Below are positions 1 through 40,774 of a stretch of 42,228 nt of DNA, one piece after another. Numbering within the stretch: the stretch's first letter is position 1; each line of letters opens with the position of its first letter. The stretch is from a virus. Made by a program: the position numbers and the translations under genes. The stretch is taken from positions 1-42,228 of IMG/VR virus record IMGVR_UViG_3300021438_000004; one strand, 5' to 3'. The notes beneath the pieces are model-generated. The model was not told the DNA's origin and searched no databases. It saw nothing but the letters and a program-made list of their open reading frames with translations.

Positions 1-108
1 TGGGACTACACAGAGGAGCAAGTCAATGAGCAGATTAATGCAGATACACGAAGTGACGGAGATTTATCAGAAGTTGGAGACGAAGTTATCGGACAAGACT
101 TGGACTGA
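1..108 (+). CDS. 3' fragment of the sigma-factor-like gene (duplicate of 42102-42209 caused by the terminal overlap; not an independent gene)
   Basis: Frame 1 is open from base 1 to TGA at 106-108 and is identical to the end of ORF 41505-42209. Confidence 0.85.
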   Translation, partial: WDYTEEQVNEQINADTRSDGDLSEVGDEVIGQDLD

Positions 109-127
109 TACTCTTTCAGAAGACGAT
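1..127. repeat. Terminal direct repeat, copy 1 (identical to 42102-42228)
   Basis: Compared both ends base by base: tgggactacacagaggagc...ctctttcagaagacgat is present at both termini. Implies a 42101-bp unit (circular or permuted assembly, or terminal redundancy). Confidence 0.97.
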
Positions 128-388
128 ATTAAATTCTTGAACGACGTCAAGGATGGGTATCAGAATCTTGTATCACAAGTTTATATTTTCATTGGCTACT
201 TCCATCAGTACATTGACCTTATTCAGGCATCTGCTATCTTCTCACCTCAGTACGCGGAAGCAGTTGCAGAGAACGGCAATGTCAGTCCAACACAAACTTC
301 GCCAGCCCCTGCCAATCGCGCTGAAAAGCGGGCTGCGAAGAAGTCAGGGCTAATCCTACCAGAAGATAAGAAGTTGGTGACTCCATGA
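26..388 (+). CDS. Hypothetical protein, 120 aa
   Basis: ATG at 26 with GAGGAG 7 nt upstream. Overlaps the sigma gene 3' end by 83 nt. The stop overlaps the next ATG (ATGA). No recognisable motif. Confidence 0.55.
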   Translation: MSRLMQIHEVTEIYQKLETKLSDKTWTDTLSEDDIKFLNDVKDGYQNLVSQVYIFIGYFHQYIDLIQASAIFSPQYAEAVAENGNVSPTQTSPAPANRAEKRAAKKSGLILPEDKKLVTP

Positions 389-522
389 TTTGCACTAAGT
401 GTCGCGCAGCAGGTACAGCCAATTCAGTTGGTGATACTGCGATTGCAGTTATGCTACATGAGCAGTGTGAGTTCAGAGATTGTTGTTGTCAGCATAAGAC
501 AGGTAAGTTAATTAAAAAATAG
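385..522 (+). CDS. Small Cys-rich protein, 45 aa (MICTKCRAAG...CEFRDCCCQHKTGKLIKK)
   Basis: Below the ORF-track size cutoff; translated by hand. ATGA overlap with 26-388. CxxC plus CxxxCCC-x-H suggests metal binding. Ends just before the terminator hairpin. Confidence 0.45.
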   Translation: MICTKCRAAGTANSVGDTAIAVMLHEQCEFRDCCCQHKTGKLIKK

Positions 523-526
523 GCAT

Positions 527-563
527 AAAAATAGCCCCCCACCCAGTTAAGGATGAGGGGCTA
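527..563 (-). terminator. Intrinsic terminator closing the minus arm; also the convergence point for the plus-strand genes 26-522
   Basis: Minus-sense RNA has AGCCCCUCAUCC / GGGUGGGGGGCU, a 12-bp stem including G-U pairs, with loop UUAACU. It is followed by AUUUUUAUGCCUAUUUUUU. Confidence 0.7.
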
Positions 564-596
564 CGAGTCTACCGCCTTCCACGAAAGCAGACTCAG

Positions 597-613
597 TGGT
601 CGGAATCCGACCA
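597..613 (-). repeat. Early-arm palindrome GGTCGG-AAW-CCGACC, copy 1 of 8
   Basis: tGGTCGGAATCCGACCa. Starts 1 nt after the stop codon (615-617) of the last minus-arm gene, upstream of the 533-562 terminator hairpin. Confidence 0.9.
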
Positions 614-614
614 G

Positions 615-767
615 TTAGTAATCACGTACTATGTTCAGTACATGAAGAACACCTTGTGCCTCAAGGCGTGTAATAATGTAATCTATCACAGATTGTTCAT
701 CTAGTGGTGGATTACCTGCTACTTCATCTCCGACAGTAATGGAGAAAGTAAAACTATTCATCTCCAT
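615..767 (-). CDS. Hypothetical protein, about 50 aa (MEMNSFTFSITVGDEVAGNPP...)
   Basis: The track ORF 615-824 was trimmed to ATG 767 (or 761), which follows AGGA and overlaps the stop of 754-888. The longer N-terminus would overlap the upstream gene in another frame. Confidence 0.5.
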   Translation of the reverse strand: MEMNSFTFSITVGDEVAGNPPLDEQSVIDYIITRLEAQGVLHVLNIVRDY

Positions 768-888
768 ACATCCTGTCAGGTTCGTTGCTCTCACTGCAAA
801 TGCATTCATAAATGAAGCGTCCACAGTCCTCGCAATCGTCTGTCTTACCCAGTGCTATGTCATCATCTAGTGGTGGTTCATAACTCAT
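754..888 (-). CDS. Small Cys-rich protein, 44 aa (MSYEPPLDDDIALGKTDDCEDCGRFIYECICSE...)
   Basis: Hand-translated, below track cutoff. AAGGA lies 8 nt upstream of ATG 888. Overlaps the stop of 878-1030. Carries CxxC...CxC. Confidence 0.5.
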   Translation of the reverse strand: MSYEPPLDDDIALGKTDDCEDCGRFIYECICSESNEPDRMYGDE

Positions 889-1030
889 GGTTGTATTCCT
901 TCCCTACTTGATAATCATCACATACTGCTTGTACTGCTTTGTCTAAGTTGCGTCTTAGTTCTTGCTTGACTGGTTCATCTAGGTGAGCGATTAACTCATC
1001 TGTCAATGTTGCCTGCCATACTATTGCCAT
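878..1030 (-). CDS. Hypothetical protein, 50 aa (MAIVWQATLTDELIAHLDEPVKQ...)
   Basis: Track ORF 878-1078 trimmed to ATG 1030. The upstream 16 codons are the translated palindrome (VVGFRP). An AAAGG SD lies between the palindrome and the ATG. Confidence 0.6.
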   Translation of the reverse strand: MAIVWQATLTDELIAHLDEPVKQELRRNLDKAVQAVCDDYQVGKEYNHEL

Positions 1031-1044
1031 TGTCGTACCTTTCT

Positions 1045-1063
1045 GTGGTCGGAATCCGACCAC
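1045..1063 (-). repeat. Early-arm palindrome, copy 2 of 8
   Basis: gtGGTCGGAATCCGACCac. Overlaps the stop (1063-1065) of 1063-1182 and lies 14 nt upstream of ATG 1030. Confidence 0.9.
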
Positions 1064-1182
1064 TACAAAGCAATCCATAAGATTGCGCTAACTGCGGTTA
1101 ATGTGGCGACAGAAGTCCAAAGCATAAGGAGTAGTTGCTCGCTTACACTTTCTGTTAGGCGTTCATAGTCGTCATGATACAT
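1063..1182 (-). CDS. Small membrane protein, 39 aa (MYHDDYERLTESVSEQLLLMLWTSVATLTAVSAILWIAL)
   Basis: Hand-translated. AGGAG lies 5 nt upstream of ATG 1182. Overlaps the whiB 3' end by 11 nt. C-terminal hydrophobic helix. Confidence 0.5.
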   Translation of the reverse strand: MYHDDYERLTESVSEQLLLMLWTSVATLTAVSAILWIAL

Positions 1183-1519
1183 CTTCTCTCCTATCGGGTA
1201 GTCCACGATAAGCAGATGACTCATAAGTTGATAGCCAATCTATTGGTTTCATCTTGAGAGCAGTCTGCATAGCGTGTCTTTCTAGTCTGTCCATACCACC
1301 CCAAATCCCAGTGAGATTGAAGTATTGCAGTGCATAACTTCGACACTCTCGCTTGGCGGGGCAGTCTGAACAGATTGAGCGAGCAAGTTCAGCCTCAGGA
1401 GTATGACTCCAGTTACGACCTCTGCCTGCTAACTCTTGCGGATGCCACCAATCAGGGTCGTATCCTTCTTCAGAACACGAAGCATGATTGGTGAACATTG
1501 GTAAGTGATTATCAAACAT
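1172..1519 (-). CDS. whiB: WhiB-family Fe-S transcription factor, 115 aa
   Basis: Four Cys, including CSDCPAKREC (C-X2-C-X5-C), followed by the GIWGG turn. Start trimmed to ATG 1519 with GAGGAG upstream; the earlier track codons are the translated palindrome. Confidence 0.9.
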   Translation of the reverse strand: MFDNHLPMFTNHASCSEEGYDPDWWHPQELAGRGRNWSHTPEAELARSICSDCPAKRECRSYALQYFNLTGIWGGMDRLERHAMQTALKMKPIDWLSTYESSAYRGLPDRREDVS

Positions 1520-1664
1520 CTGTCTCCTCGCTGGTCGGAATCCGACCAAGTGCAAGTTTATCCCATGCACAGGATTGACAGTAGTTACGCTCTGCTAGGT
1601 CGTGTGAAGCCACAACTAAGTGGCAATCACACTTCCAGCATTTAGCGTTGATGTAGTTGGTCAT
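1512..1664 (-). CDS. Zinc-ribbon protein, 50 aa (MTNYINAKCWKCDCHL...NYCQSCAWDKLALGRIPTSEETDV)
   Basis: Hand-translated. ATGA overlap with 1661-1864. CxxC...CxxC. Reads through palindrome copy 3, and its stop overlaps the whiB start. Confidence 0.55.
   Translation of the reverse strand: MTNYINAKCWKCDCHLVVASHDLAERNYCQSCAWDKLALGRIPTSEETDV
1532..1548 (-). repeat. Early-arm palindrome, copy 3 of 8
   Basis: tGGTCGGAATCCGACCa. Lies inside the 3' end of 1512-1664 (codons GRIPT), 12 nt upstream of whiB ATG 1519. Confidence 0.9.
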
Positions 1665-1864
1665 GCGTGACCTTCCTCTAGCGGAAGTTGCCCCGCTAGT
1701 TGCGCATAGTGAGTGGCTCTCACCATGAGTCGTGCGTGTTCAGTTGTATTTCCCTGCTTGAGTGCTTCTTCTGCATCATGCAGGAATAGTTCAGCGCGTA
1801 CGCCATAGTAGTACGGTGTAGGCGGTACAGGAATGTGTCTAGGTTGATTACTCACCAGCCCCAC
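1661..1864 (-). CDS. Hypothetical protein, 64-67 aa
   Basis: GTG at 1864, or GTG at 1855 (a GTGA overlap with the GATase stop). G-rich SD-like stretch upstream. No motif recognised. Confidence 0.55.
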   Translation of the reverse strand: MGLVSNQPRHIPVPPTPYYYGVRAELFLHDAEEALKQGNTTEHARLMVRATHYAQLAGQLPLEEGHA

Positions 1865-2685
1865 CCCCCTGTAACATCAGAGTTCCACCAGTTGCCACCC
1901 TTGCTAGAGTTACTGCCTTGATAGCATAGGCAATCGGTCTTGTAGACACTGCACATCCAGCAACATCCGCAAGTAGGGCAGAAGTCTTCTGCACTAGGGT
2001 CTTTGGGTTCATCTAGTAGCACAGTCTCGCATACATGGCACTCTGCCCAAAACTCTTCATCCTCTTTGAGTCCGAAGTTAAGTGGTTGAGCACTACGCCA
2101 TGAGTTGCTATAAGTAGACAGGTAGCATGAGTCGTTAGACCACCACACACCTGATGAGTCTACCTTGCCTTTGTTCTCGTGAATGAGATAGCACTGGTGC
2201 TTAGCACTAGGGTCTACTGTAAGGATGCAGACCTTAGAGCCTGATGTGAAATCTTCCATGAGGTTGAATACTTGGTCGTTATCTAGTGCAGATACACCAC
2301 CGATAGCAGGTAGCAAATCCTCTGCAAAGATACGAGTGTCACTGCGCAAGTCACCTTGCGGTTCGACAATAGGCAGGATGCCGTTGTGTGCTAGATAGGT
2401 GCGCTCATCTCCACCTACCTTGAATGGGTGACAGTTGTCCACTGTCATTGAGCCATGAGTGGCTAGTCGTGCGTGCCACATAGCATAGCCTTCAGGATAC
2501 TTAGCACGCATCTCTAAGAAGCGATTGACTGAAGTATCAGGGTTCATAGTGCGCTCACTATGGATACGGTTCTCACTTGGGATAACGATAGCAAAACCAA
2601 ATCCGTGTGGATTGTTGAGCGCAGAGTTTTCTAACTTCTCACGAGACGGAATTACATTGGGAGGAATTACACATAACATACACAT
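1852..2685 (-). CDS. Class II (Ntn) glutamine amidotransferase-like hydrolase with a Cys/Trp-rich C-terminal extension, 277 aa
   Basis: Starts Met-Cys. Carries NPHGFGFA, WHARLATHG, NCHPF and LAHNG blocks. The C-terminal ~70 aa has CHVC, CPTCGCCWMC, CLC and ends GGNWWNSDVTGGWGW. Confidence 0.85.
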   Translation of the reverse strand: MCMLCVIPPNVIPSREKLENSALNNPHGFGFAIVIPSENRIHSERTMNPDTSVNRFLEMRAKYPEGYAMWHARLATHGSMTVDNCHPFKVGGDERTYLAHNGILPIVEPQGDLRSDTRIFAEDLLPAIGGVSALDNDQVFNLMEDFTSGSKVCILTVDPSAKHQCYLIHENKGKVDSSGVWWSNDSCYLSTYSNSWRSAQPLNFGLKEDEEFWAECHVCETVLLDEPKDPSAEDFCPTCGCCWMCSVYKTDCLCYQGSNSSKGGNWWNSDVTGGWGW

Positions 2686-2701
2686 TGGCTTACTCTTTTC
2701 T

Positions 2702-2720
2702 GTGGTCGGAAACCGACCAC
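2702..2720 (-). repeat. Early-arm palindrome, copy 4 of 8
   Basis: gtGGTCGGAAACCGACCac. Abuts the amidoligase stop (2721-2723) and lies 16 nt upstream of GATase ATG 2685. Confidence 0.9.
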
Positions 2721-4175
2721 CTAGTTTTCATAAGGGGTTGAGTCAGAAGCGAACGATTCGCTCATGATTAGTGCGAGATTAGGATAAGTCTCTAGGTTCT
2801 CTGATACATACGCGGTAAAGCGTAGCCACGACAGAGCCTGATTCTTGGACGTAACCTTAAGGTCACGTGTGTACTCAACGGAAGCAGCAACGAACTCAAG
2901 TGCAGATAGCACTCTCTCCTTGCGTAACGAACCCTTGAATACGCGTACTTCTAGCGTGGCATCATTCTCGGTGTTAATAGCCGAGTATCTGCCATTAGAT
3001 TGGTTGCCAAACTTAACCTTCTCGATAAGTTTGCCTTTGTCACCAAAGGTTGCATAGTGGTTGCCACTACGCCCAGCGATACGCTCAACCTGTCGTTGGT
3101 TATCATAGATAAGTTTCATGAATCGTAACTCATGAGCCTGTCGCTTGAGGATAAGTTGTTCTCGGTCTACCCTGCCCCATGGACTCTCACCAGTACCAAA
3201 AGCGGTACGGGATACGTGAACATGAAGTCCACAGGTATCTGTATTCCATGAACGATAACCTTCACGCTTCAACTTAGGAATGAACTCCCAGTTGAAGTTA
3301 GTCTGATACTCCTGCAAGGTATGAGGATGAGTTACTACCTCAAAGCCGTCAGAGAGTGAGCCGTCATCCTTCATGTAGGCGTGACCACCTAACTCATTCT
3401 GAACTAACTCTGCACCTTCATAGCGAGAGTTATTGCGAGCCTCTACCTCTAACTCAAAGCCGAGATAGTATTGACCTCTGCCAAAGAAGTAGGGGCTAGG
3501 TCGGTACGAGTAACTATGGATTGCACCTTCGTCCTCGTCCTCTTGACAGTCGTGCCCATCTCCGTCCCAGCACTCTGAGCCACAGTCGTTACACTCATAG
3601 TAATAATCCTCATAGCAACTGTCACAGTAGAGCGTATCTCTGTACCACGTGCCGTTATCTCTGTGAAAGATGTCATCACATTGGTTGCAGGAATTGAAGT
3701 TATGGCGTCCTCCATTGTCGTTATAGTGTTCGTTGGCACAGTATTCACAACGTAGACTCCCTTCTATCTGAGTTAAATCGGTGAAACCGACAAGGTTGAG
3801 GCTACTGCGCCAATCGGTGTAGCGAGTAGTTGCATAGACTGTATCGCAATCTACACACTGATTAGAGTTACGATAGAGAGTTGAACAAGCGCGGTGAACG
3901 GTTAATTCTGTCTCTCTATCTGATAGATAAGCAGTAACGAACTGCCAATCTTGCTGGTCGGAATCCGACCGAATGAACTCAGGACGACCACAAGCCTTGC
4001 AGTTTGGAACTTCATCCATGACAGGGATGCGGTCAGGTATCTCCTCATGACCGTAGCGTACTTGGCAAGCACGACAACGCTCAGACTGATGAGGGTCTAA
4101 CTCAGATGATACGAATAGGTGGTTAGGCATACTGCAACGCTCACAGATACCGATACCTGTATAGCCGTATGACAT
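2721..4175 (-). CDS. Zinc-ribbon array fused to a glutamine-synthetase-like amidoligase (Amidoligase_2 type), 484 aa
   Basis: ATG 4175 with GGAG upstream. The N-terminal ~250 aa carry 8 CxxC pairs. The C-terminal half has GFELEVE, DDGSLSDGFEVVTHP and CGLHVHVSR. The track ORF's extra 82 N-terminal codons cross another gene and a palindrome. Confidence 0.8.
   Translation of the reverse strand: MSYGYTGIGICERCSMPNHLFVSSELDPHQSERCRACQVRYGHEEIPDRIPVMDEVPNCKACGRPEFIRSDSDQQDWQFVTAYLSDRETELTVHRACSTLYRNSNQCVDCDTVYATTRYTDWRSSLNLVGFTDLTQIEGSLRCEYCANEHYNDNGGRHNFNSCNQCDDIFHRDNGTWYRDTLYCDSCYEDYYYECNDCGSECWDGDGHDCQEDEDEGAIHSYSYRPSPYFFGRGQYYLGFELEVEARNNSRYEGAELVQNELGGHAYMKDDGSLSDGFEVVTHPHTLQEYQTNFNWEFIPKLKREGYRSWNTDTCGLHVHVSRTAFGTGESPWGRVDREQLILKRQAHELRFMKLIYDNQRQVERIAGRSGNHYATFGDKGKLIEKVKFGNQSNGRYSAINTENDATLEVRVFKGSLRKERVLSALEFVAASVEYTRDLKVTSKNQALSWLRFTAYVSENLETYPNLALIMSESFASDSTPYEN
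3956..3970 (-). repeat. Early-arm palindrome, copy 5 of 8 (inside coding sequence)
   Basis: GGTCGGAATCCGACC within the amidoligase N-terminal region, encoding RSDSDQ. Confidence 0.9.
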
Positions 4176-4177
4176 GA

Positions 4178-4339
4178 TTACTCCTGCTCGATGAAGTGCT
4201 TGAGTTCTTGATACTGATAGCGCCAGTATCTGCGTGATTCGTCTAACTGACGATTGTGAAGTGCGGTTGTGATTACAAGTGTTACTGATACGCCTAACGC
4301 AATCATGACTGCGATTAGGTCGGTTACTTCTAGGTACAT
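4178..4339 (-). CDS. Small membrane protein, 53 aa (MYLEVTDLIAVMIALGVSVTLVITTAL...)
   Basis: Track ORF 4178-4402 trimmed to ATG 4339 with AAAGG upstream. One TM helix. Its stop is 2 nt before the amidoligase ATG. Confidence 0.6.
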   Translation of the reverse strand: MYLEVTDLIAVMIALGVSVTLVITTALHNRQLDESRRYWRYQYQELKHFIEQE

Positions 4340-4357
4340 TTGGAACCTTTCGGGTAG

Positions 4358-4374
4358 TGGTCGGAAACCGACCA
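4358..4374 (-). repeat. Early-arm palindrome, copy 6 of 8
   Basis: tGGTCGGAAACCGACCa. Lies 18 nt upstream of ATG 4339, in the predicted 5' leader of the operon. Confidence 0.9.
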
Positions 4375-4409
4375 GTTGAAGTAAGGGCATGGTTGCCCCC
4401 ACTAAGATA

Positions 4410-4438
4410 AGAGTACGGCAATCGGTAACCTATGTCAA
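4410..4438 (-). promoter_or_regulatory. Candidate sigma-70-type promoter for the 4339-to-615 operon
   Basis: On the minus strand, TTGACA (4438-4433), a 17-nt spacer, then TACTCT (4415-4410). Sits downstream of the tandem terminators and upstream of palindrome copy 6. Confidence 0.35.
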
Positions 4439-4496
4439 ACGCGTATGACTTGAGCCCGCGTCCTCAGAGTACGGCTATAGATACGCCCCGCCCCCT

Positions 4497-4537
4497 CCAA
4501 CACAAACTTCTACCGACACAAACCTTTCCGACACAAA
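4497..4537 (-). repeat. Three direct repeats CCRACACAAA (minus sense TTTGTGTYGG)
   Basis: Copies at 4497-4506, 4513-4522 and 4528-4537, spaced 15-16 nt. They lie between the terminators and the candidate promoter. Confidence 0.8.
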
Positions 4538-4543
4538 ATCCGC

Positions 4544-4599
4544 GCCCGCGTTGCGCGGGCAAGCGAAAGCCCCGCCCCCCGATTAAGGGAGACGGGGCT
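4544..4599 (-). terminator. Tandem hairpin terminators after gene 4618-5271
   Basis: Hairpin 1 pairs 4568-4580 with 4587-4599 (13 bp including G-U) and is followed by UUUCGCUU. Hairpin 2 is GCCCGCG-ttg-CGCGGGC (4544-4560), followed by GCGGAUUUUGUGU. Confidence 0.6.
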
Positions 4600-4600
4600 C

Positions 4601-4615
4601 GGTCGGAATCCGACC
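4601..4615 (-). repeat. Early-arm palindrome, copy 7 of 8
   Basis: GGTCGGAATCCGACC. Starts 2 nt after the stop (4618-4620) of 4618-5271 and abuts terminator hairpin 1. Confidence 0.9.
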
Positions 4616-4617
4616 GC

Positions 4618-5271
4618 TTAGGCGCTAGCCTTTACAGGGTGTGAAACCGACAAGGCGCGAGAGTTTGCAATCTGCGCCTTAATCAAGCGCCCTAGTTTCT
4701 CCGCATTGTCGAAGTTATGGATGACCGCCTTGTCACCTTCCAATTCTTGAAAGAGCCCAAGCGCGAGAGTGACTACCGCGTCAAAGTCCACCGCGACCGC
4801 CTTAACCTTCTCTGAAATCTCCTTCTCACTCGCCACCTTCTTGCCCGCCCCGCGTGTCTCTGCTTCTGCCTTGTCCTCTGCCAAGCCTTCTGCAATCTTA
4901 GCGAACTCCGCGAATGAGCGAGAAATCTCAACGTTCGCCTTGAAATCTGCCTTACTCATAACGCGGAGAGCGTCCTGCGTGGTGGTGATGAGTTTCTTAA
5001 CGTTCACCTTCTCGCCACCTTTAAGGCTTCCCAAATTGTACGCGGCAACTACATAAGAGCGCCAAGAGGCTTTGGCGAATGTCGAACCTTCGCAAGCCTC
5101 GACAGTGGCAGCCCATCCACGAGTCGAAAGTGTGCCCGCAATTAGCAATTCTGCGGACTTATCGAACCAAGCGCGGAACGCGTCCTCGTTCACAGTGGCG
5201 CCCAATTCTTGAACGAGAACCTTGTTAGCCAAATCTTCTGCCTTTACTTGCTTTGGTGTTGCTGTTGTCAT
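4618..5271 (-). CDS. Hypothetical helical protein, about 217 aa, in a GC-rich, terminator-insulated cassette
   Basis: Long ORF with visibly higher GC than its neighbours. Start set at ATG 5271 (MTTATPKQ..., GAAAG upstream). Alternative starts are 5292 and 5328. The track start 5415 reads through palindrome copy 8. Confidence 0.65.
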   Translation of the reverse strand: MTTATPKQVKAEDLANKVLVQELGATVNEDAFRAWFDKSAELLIAGTLSTRGWAATVEACEGSTFAKASWRSYVVAAYNLGSLKGGEKVNVKKLITTTQDALRVMSKADFKANVEISRSFAEFAKIAEGLAEDKAEAETRGAGKKVASEKEISEKVKAVAVDFDAVVTLALGLFQELEGDKAVIHNFDNAEKLGRLIKAQIANSRALSVSHPVKASA

Positions 5272-5368
5272 TGTCGTACTTTCTATCATTCGAGACGTTC
5301 GCTCGACCTGATAAGAGAATGGTCTCATGGATAGGCACCAAAAGCAAATAGGCGCGACCCCTTCCAAA

Positions 5369-5385
5369 TGGTCGGAAACCGACCA
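5369..5385 (-). repeat. Early-arm palindrome, copy 8 of 8
   Basis: tGGTCGGAAACCGACCa, 97 nt upstream of ATG 5271. Confidence 0.9.
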
Positions 5386-5422
5386 CCCAAGCCAAGCCCC
5401 AGAGATACCCGCCAAAGGTCAC

Positions 5423-5442
5423 CAGAAGCCCGCAGAAGCCCG
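5423..5442. repeat. Perfect tandem 10-mer cagaagcccg x2
   Basis: Read directly: cagaagcccgcagaagcccg in the leader region of the GC-rich cassette. Confidence 0.85.
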
Positions 5443-5471
5443 AAACCCCCCAAGCGCGGGCAGATAGTCAC

Positions 5472-5506
5472 CCAACACAAACCGCGAGCCTTATTCCCAA
5501 CACAAA
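5472..5506 (-). repeat. Two further CCAACACAAA direct repeats
   Basis: Copies at 5472-5481 and 5497-5506, same orientation as the 4497-4537 set. Copy 5497-5506 follows a GC hairpin in minus sense. Confidence 0.8.
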
Positions 5507-5519
5507 AAATCGCGCGCTC

Positions 5520-5535
5520 GCCCGCTAAAGCGGGC
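5520..5535 (-). other. GC hairpin GCCCGC-taaa-GCGGGC
   Basis: 6-bp stem. In minus sense it is followed after about 10 nt by AUUUUUUGUGUUGG, the same arrangement as hairpin 2 at 4544-4560. Confidence 0.5.
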
Positions 5536-5666
5536 TCGCGGTCTGCCGACACTTACTTAATCGCGTAAGCGAATACTAAAACTAATCATGTCGTAAACGA
5601 CAAAAGACAAAAGAAAAGAAAGGTGCTCGCTGTCGCTCGCCCTCATCAAACGCCAAAAAACTTCAA

Positions 5667-5681
5667 GGTCGCACGGCGACC
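5667..5681 (-). other. Variant palindrome GGTCGC-acg-GCGACC
   Basis: Same 6+3+6 architecture as the early-arm palindrome. In minus sense it lies just downstream of a perfect TATAAT (5696-5691) and is followed by UUGAAGUUUUUUGG. Confidence 0.5.
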
Positions 5682-6016
5682 CCAGTGCTTATTATAGCCC
5701 CTGGCTATACATATACACTATCGCCTAAAATTATTTTTCCAGTATTTAGGCTCTAGTGTCCCGTATTGTCCGTATTTGTACATATATTTTTAGTGACGTT
5801 AGTCACATTTAGCACTTCAGTGCGTTCGCTTTCGTCTTTTGAACGGGTTAGTATATATAGACGAACGACTACTGCTGAGTGAGTCTATGTGACTGTGAGT
5901 GGTTGGCTAAGGCAGACGAACGAAGTGAGGCTGGCTTTATGCCAGCCACGAACCGAGGGGTTAGCGAGGCGCTGAAAGCGCCGAGCGATAAAGGGGATTT
6001 ATAACGGAGGTTTTAT

Positions 6017-7888
6017 ATGGCTGCCAAGGGTGGTAAAGAACATCACAATGTGGTGGCATTAAAAGAGGCTAAGGCCAAAGTAATAGAATTCGTCAAGCAA
6101 GGTTTAGACTTGCAGGACGCAATCGCCAGGGCTGACAGAAAGCCCGATGTCATGAAGGACTGGCGAAAAGACGAGCAGTTCATGAGAGCCCTAGAAAAGG
6201 CCCGTGAAGAGGGTGAACGTACCCTAAGCATCGTCACAGGGGACGCTAAGTTTAAGATAGGCTTTGAGCAATTCTCAAAAGAGTTTCTAGACTCGCCCAT
6301 CTTTGACCATCACCGTTCTTGGATTGATATCCTAGAAGGACGTGAGCCAAGTTACATTCATGAGAGCATGGTTTATGAGCCTGCCTCGCCTAAGCGGTTG
6401 CTTTTGAATGTGCCGCCTGAGCATGCTAAGTCTACAGTCATTACGGTCAACTACTGCGTCTATCGCATAGCCATGGACCCTAACATTAAAATTACAATTG
6501 TCTCCAAGACTCAGGAGCGTGCCAAGGAGTATCTCTACTCCATCAAGCAACGTCTGAGCCATGAACGCTGGGCCAAGATGCAAGCCGTCTATGGTTCTAC
6601 TGGTGGATGGAAAGAGGATGCAGATACCTGGAAGGCTGATAGGATTTATCTCAGCCGCGATTCCACCGAAAAGGACCCGACTGTTCAGGCTCTGGGTGTG
6701 GGTGGTCAAATCACTGGTGCTCGTTCTAACCTTATTATTCTGGATGACGTCGTTACTACCTCAAATGCCCATGAGTGGGAGAAGCAACTCCTCTGGCTCC
6801 AGCGAGATGTAGTAACTCGTCTTGGTGATGCTGGTAAACTACTTATCGTAGGAACTCGTATCGCGGCTAACGACCTCTATCGAGAGATTCGTAATCCTGA
6901 CCACTGGACGGGTGGCAAGACACCGTTTACATACATGTCAATGCCAGCAGTATTGGAGTATAACGATGACCCAGAAAAATGGACTACCCTTTGGCCAAAG
7001 TCTAATATCCCATGGGAAGGTTCAGAAGACGACATCCTACCCGATGAAAACGGTCTTTACCCTAAATGGGACGGGCCAGCACTGTTTCGCCGACGTTCAG
7101 AAGTCTCTCCTTCTGCTTGGGCACTTGTTTATCAGCAGCAGGACGTCCAGGAAGATTCTATTTTCCCGCCTGCATGTGTCCAAGGTTCAGTCAATAGGAT
7201 GCGCAAACGCGGACCTCTAAAGCCTGGTACGCCTGGTCATCCCGACCAACAAGGTCAGTGGTACACCATCATGGGATTAGACCCTGCGATGGCGGGTAAT
7301 ACCGCTGCTGTTATTATGACGGTTGACCGTCAGACTAGAAAACGCTACATCTTGGATGTAGAGAATATGCAAGAACCAACTCCTCAGAAGATTCAGAAGT
7401 TGATTGAGGATTGGGTAACTAAGTATCGCCCACAAGAACTACGTATTGAGACTAACGCTCATCAGAAGGCTTATGCACTAGATGAGAATCTACGTAACTA
7501 TCTTGCCTCTACTGGTGTGAGGTTCTCAAGCCAGTTTACTGGTAAGAATAAATGGGATACTGGTTTTGGTGTGGCTGCTATGTCAGGTCTGTTTGGGACT
7601 ATGCGCAACAATGTACACCAAGATGATAACTTAATTGAACTTCCATCACAGGATGGTTCAGAAGGTATCAAGGCTTTAATCCAACAATTAATTACTTGGA
7701 AGCCAGATACTAAAGGTAAGACAGACTGCGTAATGGCTTTATGGTTCTGTGAACTACGAGCACGCGAAGTAATCGGAACCACAAGAATGAGTCAAAGCCA
7801 TATCCCTAATAAGTGGGCTACGGCACGACAGCAAAGTACTCGTTATGTTGTAAATCTTAACGATTACGAATTTGCTCAATACGAATAG
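6017..7888 (+). CDS. terL: Terminase large subunit, 623 aa
   Basis: GGAGG 6 nt upstream of the ATG. Walker A-like NVPPEHAKST and Walker B-like LIILDDV. First gene of the long plus arm, followed by a portal-sized ORF. Confidence 0.88.
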   Translation: MAAKGGKEHHNVVALKEAKAKVIEFVKQGLDLQDAIARADRKPDVMKDWRKDEQFMRALEKAREEGERTLSIVTGDAKFKIGFEQFSKEFLDSPIFDHHRSWIDILEGREPSYIHESMVYEPASPKRLLLNVPPEHAKSTVITVNYCVYRIAMDPNIKITIVSKTQERAKEYLYSIKQRLSHERWAKMQAVYGSTGGWKEDADTWKADRIYLSRDSTEKDPTVQALGVGGQITGARSNLIILDDVVTTSNAHEWEKQLLWLQRDVVTRLGDAGKLLIVGTRIAANDLYREIRNPDHWTGGKTPFTYMSMPAVLEYNDDPEKWTTLWPKSNIPWEGSEDDILPDENGLYPKWDGPALFRRRSEVSPSAWALVYQQQDVQEDSIFPPACVQGSVNRMRKRGPLKPGTPGHPDQQGQWYTIMGLDPAMAGNTAAVIMTVDRQTRKRYILDVENMQEPTPQKIQKLIEDWVTKYRPQELRIETNAHQKAYALDENLRNYLASTGVRFSSQFTGKNKWDTGFGVAAMSGLFGTMRNNVHQDDNLIELPSQDGSEGIKALIQQLITWKPDTKGKTDCVMALWFCELRAREVIGTTRMSQSHIPNKWATARQQSTRYVVNLNDYEFAQYE

Positions 7889-7895
7889 GATAATA

Positions 7896-9629
7896 ATGGC
7901 AGACATTAAACTCATCGCACGCCGCGTAGAGGCTATGAAGCATCGCGCCTATGAGCGCGATACCCAAATGGCTAACGTGCTTGCTGTGCGTCAAGGAAAG
8001 ATGGTCGAGATTTTTCCTGACCTATTTCCAGAGGGCATGCCTCATGCTATGGTCGCAAACTTTGTTGATGTTGCAGCACGCGACTTAGCAGAAGTATTAG
8101 CACCACTGCCATCTATCAACTGCTCTACTACTAACGTAACATCAGACCGTGCTCGTGCATTTGCTGACAAGCGCAGCATGATTGCTAACAATTATGTTTA
8201 TCATTCACGTCTGCAGACTCAGATGTATCCAGGTTCTGACCAGTACTTCTCCTATGGTTTCTTGCCAGTACACGTTGAGCCAGACTGGGACAATGACCTT
8301 CCTCGTGTACGCGTAGAAGACCCAACTGGTGTCTACTATGAGCGTGACCGTTTTGGTCGTCTAGTTGCATACGCTAAGCGTTACAACAAGACAATCGGTG
8401 AACTTGTTAATGAGTTCCCTGAGTATGAGCGTGCAATCCTTGGTCAGTTTGGTTTTGACCAGAACATGAATCAAGATATTGAAGTTATCCGCTACATGGA
8501 TAAAGATTCAATCATCTTGTATGTTCCTTCACGCAAAGATTTAGTTTTAAGTTTTGCTAAAAACCCTATGGGTAAAATGACTGTCATTATTGCAGAGCGT
8601 CCATCTATTGATGGAAAGCCTCGTGGACAGTTTGATGATGTAATCTTTGTACAACTTGCTCGTGCTCGTTTTGCTAACCTTGCCATGGAAGCGGCTGAAA
8701 AGTCAATCCAGGCTCCACTTGTAGTACCTGATGATGTTCTAGATATGCCTATGGGCCCAGATGCAATCATTCGTACTACAAATCCAAATGGTGTTGGGCG
8801 TGTTCGTTTGGACATTCCCGCGGCTACTTTCCAGGAGCAATCAGCCCTCCAATCTGAATTGCGTTTAGGTGCTCGATATCCTGAGGGTAGAACTGGAAAC
8901 ATTGACGCTAGTGTTATCACTGGTCAAGGTGTCCAGGCATTACTTGGTGCTTTCGATTCTCAGATTAAGGCTGGTCAAACAGTCCTTGCTGAGGTATTGG
9001 AAGATGTCATCAAGTTATGTTTTGAAATGGATGAACTCCTTTTCAATAAGGAAAAGAGTGTCAGAGGCGTAGCGCAAGGAACACCGTACGAGTTAAAGTA
9101 CATGCCAAGCAAGGACATTAAGGGCGATACTTCTGTAGAAGTTCGATATGGCTTGATGGCTGGATTAGACCCTTCACGCGCTCTGATTTTCTCTCTACAA
9201 GCATTAGGTGCTGATTTAGTATCTAAGGACTTCATTCGTCGTGAGTTGCCATGGAGCGTAAACGTTTCTATGGAAGAGCAGCGTATTGAAATTGAAAAGA
9301 TGCGCGAGAACCTTACTGCATCAATTACTGCGAGTGCACAAGCAATTCCAGCAATGGTAGCGCAAGGTCAAGACCCATCTAAGTTAATTCAGAATATTGC
9401 AGACGTTATTGAACGTCGCCGTAAGGGTGAGACTATAGAGTCTGCTGCGTTGGCAGTGTTTAAGGTGGAAACACCTGCACAGCCTCCACAGACAGAGATG
9501 GCTCCGCCAGGCACACAAGGCCCAGTTGAGCAAGCGCCCCCGTCCCCAGCGGCTCCTGGACAACCTTCTGGCGGGGCCCCTCAACAAGCCCCAGCAGATT
9601 TAACAACAATGTTAGCAGGACTAGGTTAG
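7896..9629 (+). CDS. Portal protein (by position and size), 577 aa
   Basis: ATG 7896 with AGGA upstream; the track start 7872 overlaps terL. Lies immediately after terL. Pro/Gln-rich C-terminus. No motif-level proof. Confidence 0.7.
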   Translation: MADIKLIARRVEAMKHRAYERDTQMANVLAVRQGKMVEIFPDLFPEGMPHAMVANFVDVAARDLAEVLAPLPSINCSTTNVTSDRARAFADKRSMIANNYVYHSRLQTQMYPGSDQYFSYGFLPVHVEPDWDNDLPRVRVEDPTGVYYERDRFGRLVAYAKRYNKTIGELVNEFPEYERAILGQFGFDQNMNQDIEVIRYMDKDSIILYVPSRKDLVLSFAKNPMGKMTVIIAERPSIDGKPRGQFDDVIFVQLARARFANLAMEAAEKSIQAPLVVPDDVLDMPMGPDAIIRTTNPNGVGRVRLDIPAATFQEQSALQSELRLGARYPEGRTGNIDASVITGQGVQALLGAFDSQIKAGQTVLAEVLEDVIKLCFEMDELLFNKEKSVRGVAQGTPYELKYMPSKDIKGDTSVEVRYGLMAGLDPSRALIFSLQALGADLVSKDFIRRELPWSVNVSMEEQRIEIEKMRENLTASITASAQAIPAMVAQGQDPSKLIQNIADVIERRRKGETIESAALAVFKVETPAQPPQTEMAPPGTQGPVEQAPPSPAAPGQPSGGAPQQAPADLTTMLAGLG

Positions 9630-9884: not shown

Positions 9885-10312
9885 TGGCTATTAATGAAAA
9901 AGTCTCAGGTATGGGAGCAAACGCTTCTCGTACCGATAAAAACCTCAGTGAGCGTGTAGCAAAGGTTCAGCGTGAAGCAAAGATGCAGAATGCATCTGGT
10001 GGCGAATATGGTTCACGTGCAGATTTAACTTCTATTGCTGGTGGAGCACCTACAAATGTTCCAACACCTAGTGTTTCAACTAATCCAATTGCTGCAACTG
10101 TTCAGCCTACTAATGCTTTTACTCCTGGTGCAGGAGATGTTCCTCTTTCACATGGTGCTCCTGGTGGACCAGGTGCAGGAACCGAAGCACTTATGACTCC
10201 TGTTGATGCAGTTGACCAAGGTTCTATTCTTGCTCGTGCACTTCTTGCTGCAAATCCTACATCTCGTCAATTAGCAATGATGGTTGAAGCATATAACGAA
10301 TTGGATATGTAG
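9884..10312 (+). CDS. Hypothetical Ala/Gly/Pro-rich protein, 142 aa
   Basis: TAATG start overlap. Its stop overlaps the GTG of the giant ORF. Confidence 0.7.
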   Translation: MAINEKVSGMGANASRTDKNLSERVAKVQREAKMQNASGGEYGSRADLTSIAGGAPTNVPTPSVSTNPIAATVQPTNAFTPGAGDVPLSHGAPGGPGAGTEALMTPVDAVDQGSILARALLAANPTSRQLAMMVEAYNELDM

Positions 10313-39726: not shown

Positions 39727-40070
39727 TGTTGATTCCAGTAGACGGACACTTTGAGTGTTCAGAACCTAAGTGCGACTTCATCACTTGTGACTTGTTTGAG
39801 TTCATGGCTCACTGTGGTGTTGAGTATGAGTGGGGTGTGCGCCTGAACAAGCGATACACATTTGACTTATTCCAGTTCTTAGAGATACTCAATGAGTTGA
39901 CCAATATGGGTGACCTTGATGCTATGTATGACCACATACAGTCAGCAACTCTGTTGATGATTAACGCCAGTGGTGATGAATTAGAAGACTTTATTGAAGA
40001 AAGTATTGTACAATCAGAGATGTCAGAGGTGATGGATGGAATCGAAAGGTTACTCAAAGAGAATGAATAA
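39726..40070 (+). CDS. Acidic hypothetical protein, 114 aa
   Basis: TAATG overlap. N-terminal CxxxxC...H...C-like residues, otherwise acidic. Confidence 0.7.
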   Translation: MLIPVDGHFECSEPKCDFITCDLFEFMAHCGVEYEWGVRLNKRYTFDLFQFLEILNELTNMGDLDAMYDHIQSATLLMINASGDELEDFIEESIVQSEMSEVMDGIERLLKENE

Positions 40071-40389
40071 GGCTGAACTTAAGGAACTGGTCTGGACTGA
40101 AAAGGCTGTTGACCAGTTTGACTTAGATGTGTACGAAATCATTGATGAATTGTACATGTTGATGTTGAGTAAGCATGCAGATTATGGTCCATTAAATATC
40201 GCTAAATCTCCTGGTGGTCCTATCAATGGGCTACGTGTACGTATGTGGGACAAGATGGCACGCATCAACAATCTATTTGATAGTGGTGCAGAGGCTAAGC
40301 ATGAATCATTGGAAGACTCTTTCAAAGACCTAGCAAACTATGCAATCATCGGAATGATGGTTCTGAGAGGAAAATGGCCACAAGAATGA
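40036..40389 (+). CDS. DUF1599/MazG-like all-alpha protein (tentative), 108-117 aa
   Basis: HADYGPLNI..GLRVRMWDKMARINNL..ESLEDSFKDLANYAIIG matches my recollection of the DUF1599 pattern. Alternative start ATG 40063. Confidence 0.55.
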   Translation: MESKGYSKRMNKAELKELVWTEKAVDQFDLDVYEIIDELYMLMLSKHADYGPLNIAKSPGGPINGLRVRMWDKMARINNLFDSGAEAKHESLEDSFKDLANYAIIGMMVLRGKWPQE

Positions 40390-40469
40390 AATGGTTATTG
40401 TTAATCCCGATTGCATTGGGCACTTGGTATTGTATTACAACTTTTAACGACACTTGGAGAAGCAAATGA
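40386..40469 (+). CDS. Possible 27-aa hydrophobic micro-protein (MKWLLLIPIALGTWYCITTFNDTWRSK)
   Basis: ATGA overlaps at both ends link it to the flanking genes. No other support. Confidence 0.3.
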   Translation: MKWLLLIPIALGTWYCITTFNDTWRSK

Positions 40470-40774
40470 AAATATTTGGACCATACAAAGGCAGTAAACA
40501 AAACGGCGGACGTCCAATCTATGTGTTCAAGAGAAAGAAGAAAGATGGCACAACTGTCACTACTTCAAGTAACAAAGCACGAGTTGACTATGAGAAAGCA
40601 ACTGGCAAAACTTTACCTAAAAGTACTGATGTCGACCACAAGGATAATGGTGGACGTGCTGGTCATGATGGTAAGCGCAATCTTCAAACCATGTCTCACT
40701 CCAAGAACGTTGCCAAAGAAAACAAGCGACGTGCTGTGAAGAAGACCGTAAAGAAAGCAGCCAAGAAGAAGTGA
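40466..40774 (+). CDS. HNH endonuclease, about 102 aa
   Basis: ATG 40466 with GGAG 6 nt upstream. DVDHKDNGG...NLQTMSHSKN HNH motif. Lys-rich tail. Confidence 0.75.
   Translation: MKIFGPYKGSKQNGGRPIYVFKRKKKDGTTVTTSSNKARVDYEKATGKTLPKSTDVDHKDNGGRAGHDGKRNLQTMSHSKNVAKENKRRAVKKTVKKAAKKK

Follow-up and report, generated by a model that had tools for sequence, protein, structure and literature searches.

The 42,228-nucleotide viral sequence analysed here (IMG/VR record IMGVR_UViG_3300021438_000004; hereafter the window) carries on its minus strand two adjacent genes, the first encoding a glutamine synthetase (GS)-like carboxylate-amine ligase with an N-terminal Cys-rich array and the second a class II GATase-like Ntn hydrolase with a Cys/Trp-rich tail. 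Our tentative reading, to which we assign a probability of about 0.4, is that the pair constitutes a module for making and cleaving amides of gamma-glutamyl type, in which the acidic zinc modules serve to bring in a protein target or to join the two enzymes. Both open reading frames and all the motifs quoted in a preliminary description of this DNA were found again at their positions; its observation is confirmed and its interpretation is partly supported.

The ligase gene (2721..4175, minus strand) encodes, according to its open reading frame and translation, 484 amino acids plus a stop codon, with a zinc-finger array N-terminal to the GS-like amidoligase domain. The ATG start codon at 4175 is shared by 49 homologues, and gene calling done independently on the source contig likewise yields a 484-aa product; a longer ORF that opens with TTG and extends to 4421 is not the one in use. 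Full-length homologues are colinear with the window protein in an alignment of 50 sequences (A1). As the Cys-rich regions are colinear in all full-length homologues, they are genuine and do not come from mis-joined ORFs.

The C-terminal domain (residues 234-484; 2724..3476, minus strand) is a glutamine-synthetase-like carboxylate-amine ligase fold of the Amidoligase_2 clade, as had been proposed for this half of the protein. The ligase motifs are GFELEVE (residues 239-245), DDGSLSDGFEVVTHP (270-284) and CGLHVHVSR (315-323). A Foldseek search of the PDB with the AF2 model retrieved YbdK (1r8g, E=3e-6), along with PafA (4bjr), GS (8fbp), GmaS (9qur) and Dop, and the structural neighbours in BFVD include many viral 'amidoligase' proteins. 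Among 24 diverse sequences sharing 23-46% identity (A3), residues G239, E241, E243, D271, S273, G277, E279, G316, H318, H320, R369, E409 and R411 are invariant, and the catalytic set E.E / D.S...E / H.H / R / E.R is therefore intact. Pfam family PF12224 is matched by 21 of 24 diverse relatives, the window protein itself scoring 21.2 bits, 0.8 bit short of the cut-off of 22. No HMM-level match of the ligase to any PDB sequence was found, and hhalign against E. coli YbdK gave no significant alignment; the AF2 models of the two proteins are only moderate (pLDDT 78 and 69), with TM-scores of 0.3-0.5 to their PDB matches. The predicted fold is that of YbdK/GCS2, glutamine synthetase, GmaS and PafA, with the acidic, His and Arg motifs on the expected strands, although identity to the solved GS-fold ligases is 10-14% and the window ligase differs from them all in its N-terminal zinc-finger array. 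The shared fold and motifs therefore imply an ATP-dependent acyl-phosphate mechanism. By analogy with GS, YbdK, GmaS and PafA, the ligase would phosphorylate a carboxylate at the expense of ATP, most likely the gamma-carboxyl of glutamate, and then join it to an amine. All characterised structural neighbours of the ligase, namely GS, GCS2/YbdK, GmaS and PafA, activate the glutamate gamma-carboxyl, which supports the gamma-glutamyl chemistry that we infer for the pair.

Ahead of the catalytic core, residues 216-233 (3477..3530, minus strand) comprise an EDEDEG acidic linker and a IHSYSYRPSPYFFG motif. I219, H220, Y222, Y224, P226, F230 and G232 of this region are invariant in A1, P226 being near-invariant also in A3; AF2 confidence is low across residues 212-228. 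The preceding residues 1-215 (3531..4175, minus strand) form an acidic Cys-rich array, for which about four zinc ribbons in some 250 aa had been described: the eight CxxC pairs (at residues 11, 34, 59, 107, 143, 163, 184 and 195) and the array as such are borne out, but it extends over only about 215 aa and its likely Cys4/Cys3His sites number about five. From their spacing, the likely ligand groups are C11/C14/C34/C37, C59/C62/H94/C97, C107/C110/C143/C146, C163/C166/C184/C187 and C195/C198/(H208)/C210. None of 20,000 composition-preserving shuffles of the N-terminus reached eight CxxC (mean 1.6 +/- 1.2), and relatives of the ligase carry 5 to 10. Cys content is 9% in the array and 12% in the tail of the Ntn protein; a set of 14 further large ORFs from the window has only 0.3%. 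Eighteen Cys and H94 are invariant in the 50 homologues of A1 within variable surroundings, mean column identity being 0.55 in the array versus 0.85 in the catalytic domain. AF2 models residues 1-200 with a pLDDT of about 90. A Pfam search of the array returned no domain match; a weak LIM-like similarity to CRP (E=0.1) was detected, and one of its BFVD structural neighbours is named 'LIM domain containing protein'. Throughout the family the array is strongly acidic (net charge -24, pI 4.4), and we read it as a protein-binding rather than a nucleic-acid-binding module. With its approximately five predicted zinc sites and rapid divergence, this LIM-like array would recruit a target or dock the partner enzyme; it is from charge and variability, and from nothing else, that we infer a protein target.

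Zinc modules so strongly acidic are ill suited to DNA binding, and this weighs against phage DNA hypermodification, in which the pair would add an amino-acid-derived group to a modified base or trim it from one, a reading that we consider very improbable. The pair also lies in the gene string of a WhiB-like regulator, distant from the replication genes, and a hydroxymethylase, a 5-hmdU kinase and an aGPT-Pplase had no match among the scanned ORFs, which include about half of the large structural ones. What speaks for such a role is the presence in the window of a gene (40036-40389) for DUF1599, or 'nucleotide modification associated domain 1', and the finding of uncharacterised amidoligase/amidotransferase genes alongside thymidine-hypermodification genes in viral contigs (Lee et al., PMC8989533).

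The second gene (1852..2685, minus strand; 277 aa plus a stop codon) encodes a protein that begins with Met-Cys and contains NPHGFGFA, WHARLATHG, NCHPF and LAHNG. Its earlier assignment as a class II GATase/Ntn hydrolase holds: the protein passes the Pfam GATase_4 cut-off (24.2 versus 23), and Foldseek matches its AF2 model to the GlmS glutaminase domain (E=5e-7), PurF, 1te5 and EgtC. Within the Ntn/GATase core (residues 1-190; 2116..2685, minus strand), the nucleophile C2 and residues R73, T76, N101, G102 and D116 correspond to C1, R73, T76, N98, G99 and D123 of E. coli GlmS and are invariant in an alignment that includes this enzyme (A5), the R/T/HNG block being covered by both hhalign and HMM alignments. 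Judged from these alignments, all the catalytic and glutamine-binding residues of GlmS are kept. The protein shares with EgtC, GlmS, PurF and AsnB the N-terminal Cys nucleophile, the Arg/Thr/Asp glutamyl-binding triad, the Asn-Gly oxyanion hole and the fold, at 13-21% identity to class II GATase relatives, to which it adds an acidic tail that contains 7-8 Cys along with several Trp. Removal of Met1 would make Cys2 the N-terminal nucleophile, and the enzyme would then act on gamma-glutamyl amides (gamma-Glu-X or Gln) rather than on ordinary peptide bonds, since its pocket retains the residues that hold a free alpha-carboxylate and alpha-amino group. Unlike GlmS, PurF and AsnB, it has no synthase domain attached and stands alone as EgtC does, although without EgtA, B, D or E partners; EgtC, a characterised stand-alone class II GATase-like protein, is a gamma-glutamyl amidohydrolase.

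The tail (residues 205-277; 1855..2073, minus strand) bears out the Cys/Trp-rich extension noted previously, with CHVC, CPTCGCCWMC, CLC, a C-terminal GGWxW and the last residues GGNWWNSDVTGGWGW. Across 46 homologues, C216, C219, C236, C239, C242, C245, C254 and W275 do not vary, and position 252 (Cys in the window protein) is Cys or Asp. Four CxxC were counted versus 1.0 in shuffles (P=0.006), the tail has a net charge of about -8 with a pI of 4.2, and pLDDT is about 70 at residues 211-250 and below 50 at 255-277. The CxxCxxCxxC stretch may bind Zn or an Fe-S cluster.

Ligase and Ntn genes are strictly co-conserved. The Ntn gene lies immediately downstream of the ligase gene in 78 of 80 related viral contigs, the other two being cut by the contig end, and the pair is present and adjacent in 24 of 25 relatives selected by TerL; a Met-Cys-start GlmS-like protein directly follows the ligase at 71 of 78 bacterial genome loci, mostly of Clostridia. 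The gap is usually 0-36 nt. Mycobacterium phage Marvin (gp105/gp106), OM43 phages (gp05/gp06 of MEP401 and MEP402), MW202733 and a Bifidobacterium phage have the two genes arranged likewise, and the hosts spanned are Actinobacteria, Clostridia, OM43 and Saccharimonadales. Marvin gp105, which has N-terminal CxxC pairs of its own, shares 33% identity with the catalytic half of the window ligase; for gp106 and the Ntn protein the figure is 32%, in an alignment that covers 92% of the latter and takes in the CxxC...CxxCxxCxxC...CxC tail. The array of the window ligase is longer, with eight CxxC versus four in Marvin and two in MEP401, and the Ntn proteins of MEP401 and MW202733 lack the Cys tail. 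The two proteins belong to PHROGs 16683, 22302 and 25883, and clustering at 50% identity (E<=1e-10) puts the ligase family at about 7,500 clusters; among the best 150, almost every one has the Cys array. The pair is genuine and very widely distributed among phages. With such a distribution the architecture is not new, and the claim that it was undescribed fails against GenBank phages of the Marvin cluster, PHROGs and thousands of metagenomic clusters. The ligase/GATase pairing itself was reportedly already noted by Iyer, Abhiman, Burroughs and Aravind in 2009.

Such strict adjacency at short distance is also expected of subunits of one enzyme, and the main rival to the gamma-glutamyl module is a two-component glutamine-dependent amidotransferase, possible in our view but doubtful. 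Here the Ntn glutaminase would feed ammonia to the GS-like ligase for the amidation (R-COOH to R-CONH2) of a carboxylate activated by ATP, and the zinc modules would link the subunits. The carboxylate might belong, for instance, to a peptidoglycan precursor, to the side chain of a protein or to a metabolite. The intact class II glutamine-binding and catalytic residues are just as compatible with a true glutaminase, condensation of ammonia with an acyl-phosphate is what GS itself carries out, and the need for a free N-terminal Cys could explain why the hydrolase has its own downstream gene instead of being fused to the C-terminus of the ligase. In the class II amidotransferases known to us, however, the GATase is an N-terminal fusion to the synthase, class I GATases serve the two-subunit amidotransferases, and we know of no GS-fold enzyme that takes ammonia from a GATase partner. 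According to citing papers (PMC11318856 among them), a role in modifying the cell wall was suggested by Iyer et al. (2009) for the amidoligase/GATase pair of phiEco32, which would suit an amidotransferase. Other phage and prophage amidoligases are nevertheless paired with a gamma-glutamyl cyclotransferase, instead of or besides a GATase (PMC11318856, PMC10945688); as a cyclotransferase cleaves gamma-glutamyl amides and cannot donate ammonia, this pairing supports gamma-glutamyl chemistry.

In the gamma-glutamyl module that we favour, the two enzymes would act in succession during infection, a target of host or phage origin first receiving an amide of gamma-glutamyl type that is later removed or processed. 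PuuA/PuuD and, in butirosin synthesis, BtrJ/BtrG perform ATP-dependent gamma-glutamyl ligation followed by removal through a gamma-glutamyl-specific hydrolase or cyclotransferase; the proposed cycle of making and cleaving is alike, whereas the window module lacks intervening enzymes that modify the carried amine. Against it, a ligase and a hydrolase for one bond look futile unless they form a regulatory cycle or act on different molecules.

The product could instead be a gamma-glutamyl amine or peptide in free form, such as a conjugate of a polyamine, a thiol or an amino acid. The pair would make or remodel it so as to tune the nitrogen, thiol or polyamine pools of the host, and its Cys modules would be structural only. 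We regard such an 'auxiliary metabolic gene' role as unlikely, even though the close functional analogues YbdK/GCS2, GmaS and EgtC act on small molecules, other phages join amidoligase, GATase, ATP-grasp 'glutathione synthase' and gamma-glutamyl cyclotransferase genes, and published genome papers class the pair as auxiliary metabolic genes. A big, fast-evolving multi-site zinc array and a conserved Cys/Trp tail are unusual in soluble metabolic enzymes with small-molecule substrates, and the four host groups differ in thiol and polyamine chemistry. No further pathway enzymes were found among the scanned ORFs of the window, and the extra COOH-NH2 ligase and ATP-grasp genes of LUZ24-like phages have no counterpart there.

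Downstream, a gene for a 64-67-aa protein (1661..1864, minus strand), whose start overlaps the Ntn stop codon, directly follows the Ntn gene in 62 of the 80 related contigs. The protein has a conserved VPPTPYYYG.RAELFLHDA core and a variable C-terminus, and family searches with it gave no match. The WhiB-like regulator (1172..1570, minus strand; Pfam Whib, E=1.6e-12) belongs to the same leftward gene string, as first described, and is syntenic in 65 of the 80, the order ligase-Ntn-orf67-WhiB being retained in 62-65. The host is probably an actinobacterium, given WhiB and a TerL nearest to those of Streptomyces phages. PADLOC models matched neither ligase nor Ntn protein, for which expression in an early arm and a host-takeover or anti-defence role had been put forward as candidates.

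A conserved small protein after the pair, a probable actinobacterial host and the presence of PafA and Dop among the structural neighbours of the ligase recall pupylation, with the ligase placing a small phage protein such as the 67-aa product on lysines and the hydrolase activating or removing this tag; we hold this to be the least probable of the readings. The likeness to PafA/Dop drawn earlier survives at the level of the GS-like superfamily (12-13% identity, YbdK outranking PafA among the Foldseek matches) and in the ligase-plus-amidohydrolase logic, but Dop is a PafA paralogue whereas the window hydrolase is an Ntn enzyme, and no Pup-like tag was found. The 67-aa protein lacks a conserved terminal Gln or Glu and is missing from Marvin, MEP401 and the Clostridia loci despite the pair, and, to judge from D116, the alpha-amino group of the substrate is free, which is not so in the C-terminal residue of a protein. 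Pairs of this type also occur in Clostridia and in phages of Proteobacteria, hosts in which, to our knowledge, pupylation is absent.

The 35-nt spacer between the ligase stop and the Ntn start contains a conserved stem-loop (2702..2720, minus strand) followed by a purine-rich ribosome-binding stretch and no T-run. Across 18 distinct sequences, 94% of the alignment cells are paired versus 21-46% in slid controls, and 26 cells are changed on both sides versus 9.9 +/- 2.6 in shuffles (0 of 500 reach 26). Spacer and hairpin are missing in more distant relatives, where the ligase and Ntn genes abut. The leftward gene string ends at a strong terminator-like hairpin with a 14-bp stem and a T-run (531..564, minus strand).

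The ligase gene and the Ntn hydrolase gene of the window are inherited as a unit. Both open reading frames and all of the motifs quoted in the preliminary description were confirmed: the two genes are consecutive on the minus strand, at 2721-4175 for the ligase (484 aa counted from the ATG at 4175) and at 1852-2685 for the Ntn hydrolase (277 aa), and independent gene prediction on the source contig, a Logan assembly of 42,131 nt from run SRR7107448, gave the same lengths. A TTG start extending the ligase ORF to 4421 was rejected, given that 49 full-length homologues start at the equivalent of MSYGY. In 78 of 80 IMG/VR contigs selected through the ligase, the Ntn gene lies directly downstream of the ligase gene, and the remaining two contigs end within the ligase gene. 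The pair is also present in 24 of 25 relatives chosen independently by TerL, all of them contigs that extend 5 kb or more upstream of this gene. The lone exception (IMGVR_UViG_3300032050_000315, 1-8000; 62% identity in TerL) retains a WhiB-like gene upstream of TerL and has neither ligase nor Ntn gene, indicating that the pair is core in the lineage of the window and accessory at a larger scale. Bacterial genome loci, retrieved with a 10-sequence alignment and belonging mostly to Oscillospiraceae and other Clostridia, besides Actinoplanes and Saccharimonadales, have a recognisable downstream ORF in 78 of 80 cases, and in 71 of these 78 a protein of about 310 aa with a Met-Cys start, from a single family, directly follows the ligase; the one such partner tested matches the GlmS glutaminase domain (E=2e-20). 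Co-conservation, chosen beforehand as a test capable of refuting the pairing, therefore clearly holds in the viral, TerL-selected and bacterial samples, and the effectively core status of the pair in the lineage of the window suggests a function that matters during infection. At 1991-4026 of IMGVR_UViG_3300008113_002914, the ligase is split, and its C-terminal part continues without a change of frame into an Ntn protein lacking its first 11 residues and hence the Cys nucleophile; this locus is probably degraded or mis-assembled and not a true fusion.

The AlphaFold2 model of the ligase, built from a 50-sequence alignment, is of moderate overall quality (pLDDT 77.6), with values of about 90 across the zinc array (residues 1-200). 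Foldseek searches of the PDB with this model retrieved YbdK as top match (E=3e-6), followed by PafA, glutamine synthetase (GS), GmaS (gamma-glutamylmethylamide synthetase) and Dop, all with probability 1.00, and in BFVD dozens of viral proteins named amidoligase were matched, down to E=6e-23. The window ligase itself scores 21.2 bits against the Amidoligase_2 family (PF12224), 0.8 bit short of the cut-off of 22 and over residues 267-326 only; 21 of 24 diverse relatives match this family (E<=1e-3), as does a C. difficile phage homologue (45 bits), which matches the family profile of the window ligase at E=1e-32. Across these 24 sequences (23-46% identity) G239, E241, E243, D271, S273, G277, E279, G316, H318, H320, R369, E409 and R411 are invariant, so that the metal, phosphate and substrate motifs (G.E.E; D.S...G.E; G.H.H; R; E.R.F) are all kept. 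Fold matches, invariant motifs and the PF12224 matches of the relatives together uphold the assignment as an Amidoligase_2/GS-like enzyme, and membership in the wider Amidoligase_2 family is well supported; as modelled, the protein shows a GS-type acyl-phosphate ligase fold, and its predicted active site is intact. Sequence comparison with the PDB using the ligase profile gave no GS-like match and only weak LIM/CRP matches, the hhalign comparison with E. coli YbdK was non-significant (probability 3.9%), NCBIfam holds no model for the ligase, and PADLOC holds none for either protein of the pair.

The Ntn hydrolase begins with MCMLC, and a Met-Cys start was found in all 46 homologues as well as in the distant partners. 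Its Pfam GATase_4 score of 24.2 is above the cut-off of 23, and its model (pLDDT 69) was matched by Foldseek to the GlmS glutaminase domain (E=5e-7), PurF, the YafJ-like structure 1te5 and EgtC. In an alignment that took in E. coli GlmS (MG1655 record) and the distant partners, the invariant columns C2, R73, T76, N101, G102 and D116 correspond to GlmS C1, R73, T76, N98, G99 and D123; the R/T/HNG block was aligned by HMMER and hhalign too, while the equivalence of D116 comes from the MAFFT alignment only. These observations bear out the class II GATase/Ntn assignment proposed earlier. In GlmS, PurF and EgtC, such residues provide one nucleophile, two oxyanion-hole residues and three residues that grip the free alpha-carboxylate and alpha-amino groups of glutamine or of a gamma-glutamyl group. 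Because the catalytic and pocket residues match those of GlmS, the Ntn hydrolase seems to be suited to a glutaminyl or gamma-glutamyl amide and not to a general peptide bond, and the alignments show a predicted Cys-nucleophile amidohydrolase with a glutamyl-head-group pocket and an intact active site.

The reading that we favour, with a probability of roughly 0.4, is that the pair forms a module that writes a gamma-glutamyl-type amide and then removes or processes it: the ligase would write the amide, the Ntn hydrolase would remove or process the same amide, and the acidic zinc modules of both proteins would serve to bring in a protein target or to dock the two partners. We infer a bond of this type because, to our knowledge, all characterised structural neighbours of the ligase activate the gamma-carboxyl of glutamate, because the Ntn pocket requires a free glutamyl head group, and because the amidoligase partner elsewhere is or includes a gamma-glutamyl cyclotransferase, an enzyme that cleaves the same type of bond and is unable to donate ammonia. 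This cyclotransferase (AIG2/GGCT) is the partner, or one of the partners, of amidoligases in other phages and prophages (PMC11318856, PMC10945688), and a neighbouring partner of predicted gamma-glutamyl-cleaving type is also present here, in the form of the GATase-like Ntn gene. The main rival is a two-component glutamine-dependent amidotransferase, which explains the tight coupling of the genes at least as well and which, if true, would be the first two-subunit amidotransferase made of a class II GATase and a GS-fold synthetase. The Ntn hydrolase is not fused to a synthase domain, and we know of no precedent for an amidotransferase with a stand-alone class II GATase or with a GS-fold synthetase; we regard this rival as less probable than the favoured reading. 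That the pair has a role in small-molecule metabolism is unlikely in our estimation. No demonstrated substrate for any member of the ligase family was found in the literature searched, and searches for a characterised phage amidoligase or for phage glutamylation returned nothing relevant.

Both proteins carry a cysteine-rich module, the N-terminal array of the ligase (residues 1-215) and the C-terminal tail of the Ntn hydrolase (residues 205-277). Cysteine content reaches 9% in the ligase N-terminus and 12% in the Ntn tail, against 0.3% in 14 other large ORFs of the window, and the eight CxxC motifs of the ligase N-terminus compare with 1.6 +/- 1.2 in composition-keeping shuffles, none of 20,000 shuffles reaching eight. 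In 50 ligase homologues (56-84% identity) 18 cysteines and one histidine of the array are invariant (C11, C14, C34, C37, C59, C62, H94, C97, C107, C110, C143, C146, C163, C166, C184, C187, C195, C198 and C210), as are C216, C219, C236, C239, C242, C245, C254 and W275 of the tail in 46 Ntn homologues. This enrichment and the invariance of the ligands point to about five predicted metal sites for the ligase array and two for the Ntn tail, the grouping of cysteines into individual sites being set by spacing only, and exclude the possibility that the Cys-rich regions are separate, mis-joined ORFs. The regular spacing of conserved Cys/His ligands in both modules is that of zinc ribbon or LIM-type modules; Pfam gave no significant match of either module to LIM, DZR or another curated zinc-finger family, even at E<=10. 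The ligase array has weak similarity to LIM (CRP; E=0.1), DZR is matched by one of the 24 ligase relatives, and UniProt gives the name LIM-domain protein to one structural neighbour that the ligase has in BFVD.

The array has a net charge of -24 (pI 4.4) and the tail one of about -8 (pI 4.2), and this acidity holds family-wide. Such strong acidity argues against nucleic-acid binding and agrees with binding to proteins, whether a basic target or the partner enzyme; the acidic and variable zinc modules are therefore, judging from composition and alignment, better candidates for protein binding than for nucleic-acid binding. Apart from its invariant ligands, the array is the most variable region of the ligase, with a mean column conservation of 0.55 versus 0.85 for the catalytic domain, and the number of CxxC motifs per ligase ranges from 5 to 10 among relatives, so that it has the appearance of a rapidly evolving module for recognition or docking, joined to an enzyme under constraint. 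Both extensions, the zinc array and the Cys tail, are features of the family, and no discussion of them or of an amidoligase-zinc-ribbon fusion was found in the literature searched. In the alignment of 24 diverse ligases, gp105 of Mycobacterium phage Marvin and several metagenomic ligases have an extra C-terminal CxCxxC and aromatic terminal residues. The Marvin gp106 protein (pair locus 3872-6212) ends in ...GEYL, which may resemble the (G)QYL motif at the C-terminus of mycobacterial Mpa and Bpa that serves in proteasome docking.

A more specific version of the write-and-remove reading is that the pair is a virus-encoded protein modification system, in which a GS-fold ligase targeted by its array would attach an isopeptide mark, of the gamma-glutamyl type or with an amine on glutamate, to a basic host protein of, for example, the nucleoid, the ribosome or a defence system, with the Ntn hydrolase as eraser or processor. 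This version is tentative and, in our view, rather improbable; if true, it would give phages a widespread equivalent of pupylation or glutamylation, as yet undemonstrated, that serves host takeover or counter-defence. The analogy with PafA/Dop pupylation drawn in the preliminary description stands for the ligase superfamily and the general logic, and fails for paralogy and for the tag protein. PafA resembles the window ligase at the level of fold only, with 12% identity and a rank below YbdK, and whereas the pupylation ligase and the depupylase are paralogous, the hydrolase of the window is a class II GATase-type Ntn enzyme. Pup is a small disordered tag ending in Gly-Gly-Gln/Glu; the adjacent 67-aa protein, in contrast, ends in EGHA, GNNE, HRA or others after a conserved LAGQLPLE. 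It was rejected as a Pup-like tag on account of its variable C-terminus, its patchy distribution and its absence from distant loci that keep the pair, and Pup-like tagging by the pair is very improbable.

DNA hypermodification would be another role for the pair, and the only match related to base modification among the scanned ORFs is a DUF1599 protein ('nucleotide modification associated domain 1'). No dUMP hydroxymethylase or TET/JBP enzyme, 5-hmdU DNA kinase or aGPT-Pplase was found in that scan, which covered the ORFs of the replication arm, other ORFs and part of the structural ones. Because these companion enzymes were not found and the zinc modules are acidic, we consider this role very unlikely.

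When the ligase profile was run against the complete set of 1.84 billion representative proteins, it retrieved 10,155 clusters (at 50% identity) at E<=0.001, 7,511 at E<=1e-10 and 1,475 at E<=1e-30, and among the best 150 of these matches nearly all full-length members have 12-25 cysteines ahead of the G.E.E motif. In PHROGs the ligase corresponds to phrog_16683 and phrog_22302 and the Ntn protein, including its tail, to phrog_25883, all of unknown function. Both genes occur in 19 records of the Marvin cluster of Mycobacterium phages, where each is annotated as 'glutamine amidotransferase domain protein'; Marvin gp105 has 453 aa and gp106 has 299 aa, and the tail of the latter shares the CxxC...CxxCxxCxxC...CxC pattern. 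The pair was also found in the OM43 phages MEP401/402 and in podovirus MW202733, and in Bifidobacterium phage BA720P3 a short Ntn protein is encoded two genes downstream of a diverged, Cys-rich ligase. The suggestion that the architecture was undescribed must consequently be dropped, since a zinc-array ligase with a Cys-tailed Ntn protein is already present in the Marvin cluster, in PHROGs and in thousands of metagenomic clusters. According to papers that cite it (PMC11318856 among them), Iyer et al. 2009 described the association of ligase and GATase in phages, and later reports mention the pair for Marvin, OM43 phages and archaeal viruses, never with a function. The pair of the window therefore belongs to an already known, uncharacterised kind and adds no new architecture; it is correctly identified at the domain level and is of biological interest as a family. 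The ligase family is among the larger phage enzyme families still without a substrate, it is accompanied nearly everywhere by the same Ntn hydrolase, and the pair is known from phages or bacterial genomes of Actinobacteria, Proteobacteria, Clostridia and Saccharimonadales. A model with the same architecture that is in culture and amenable to genetics is at hand in gp105/gp106 of mycobacteriophage Marvin.

With its length of about 42 kb, the window appears to be a complete phage genome; a sigma factor is among its products. Its host is likely an actinobacterium, given that it carries a WhiB gene and that its TerL is nearest to those of Streptomyces podophages (45% identity). The pair lies in a leftward gene string, presumably the early arm, which opens with the gene for an unknown protein of 223-265 aa, runs on through that for a possible membrane protein (74 aa), the ligase and Ntn genes and those for proteins of 64-67 aa and 50 aa (the latter with CxxC) to WhiB (1172-1570, minus strand) and further small ORFs, and ends at a strong terminator-like hairpin (531-564). 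The order of ligase, Ntn hydrolase, 67-aa gene and WhiB is kept in 62-65 of the 80 related contigs.

A 35-nt spacer separates the ligase stop (2721-2723) from the Ntn start (2685) and contains a stem-loop at 2702-2720 on the minus strand, directly after the stop codon. This stem-loop is conserved with many compensatory changes, as in the arm pairs GTGGTCGG/CCGACCAC, GTACGAT/ATCGTAC and GCAGGAT/ATCCTGC, and is followed on its 3' side by a purine-rich ribosome-binding stretch with no T-run; it may set the ratio of ligase to Ntn expression or stabilise the mRNA. In more distant relatives the spacer is absent and the two genes abut.

The 64-67-aa protein (1661-1864, minus strand) starts inside the last Ntn codons and is present in 62 of the 80 related contigs; it has the core VPPTPYYYG.RAELFLHDA...LAGQLPLE and no family match. 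The 50-aa protein encoded between its gene and WhiB (1512-1664, minus strand) has a CxxC...CxxC pattern (CWKCDCH...CQSC) and is the third small Cys-rich product of the leftward string. The 74-aa ORF (4178-4402, minus strand), which ends at the ligase start codon, has one hydrophobic, membrane-like segment; it was found by BLAST beside the ligase in 37 of the 80 related contigs, was left uncalled by the gene caller on the source contig, and has a GC-rich hairpin upstream (4543-4561, minus strand). Just past the portal region, a 1,930-aa ORF (10312-16104, plus strand) has no PHROGs match. At the other end of the window, genes for the DUF1599 protein, a metallophosphoesterase and a sigma-factor-like protein (40036-42209, plus strand) converge on the end of the leftward string, and this trio is syntenic in most of the related contigs.
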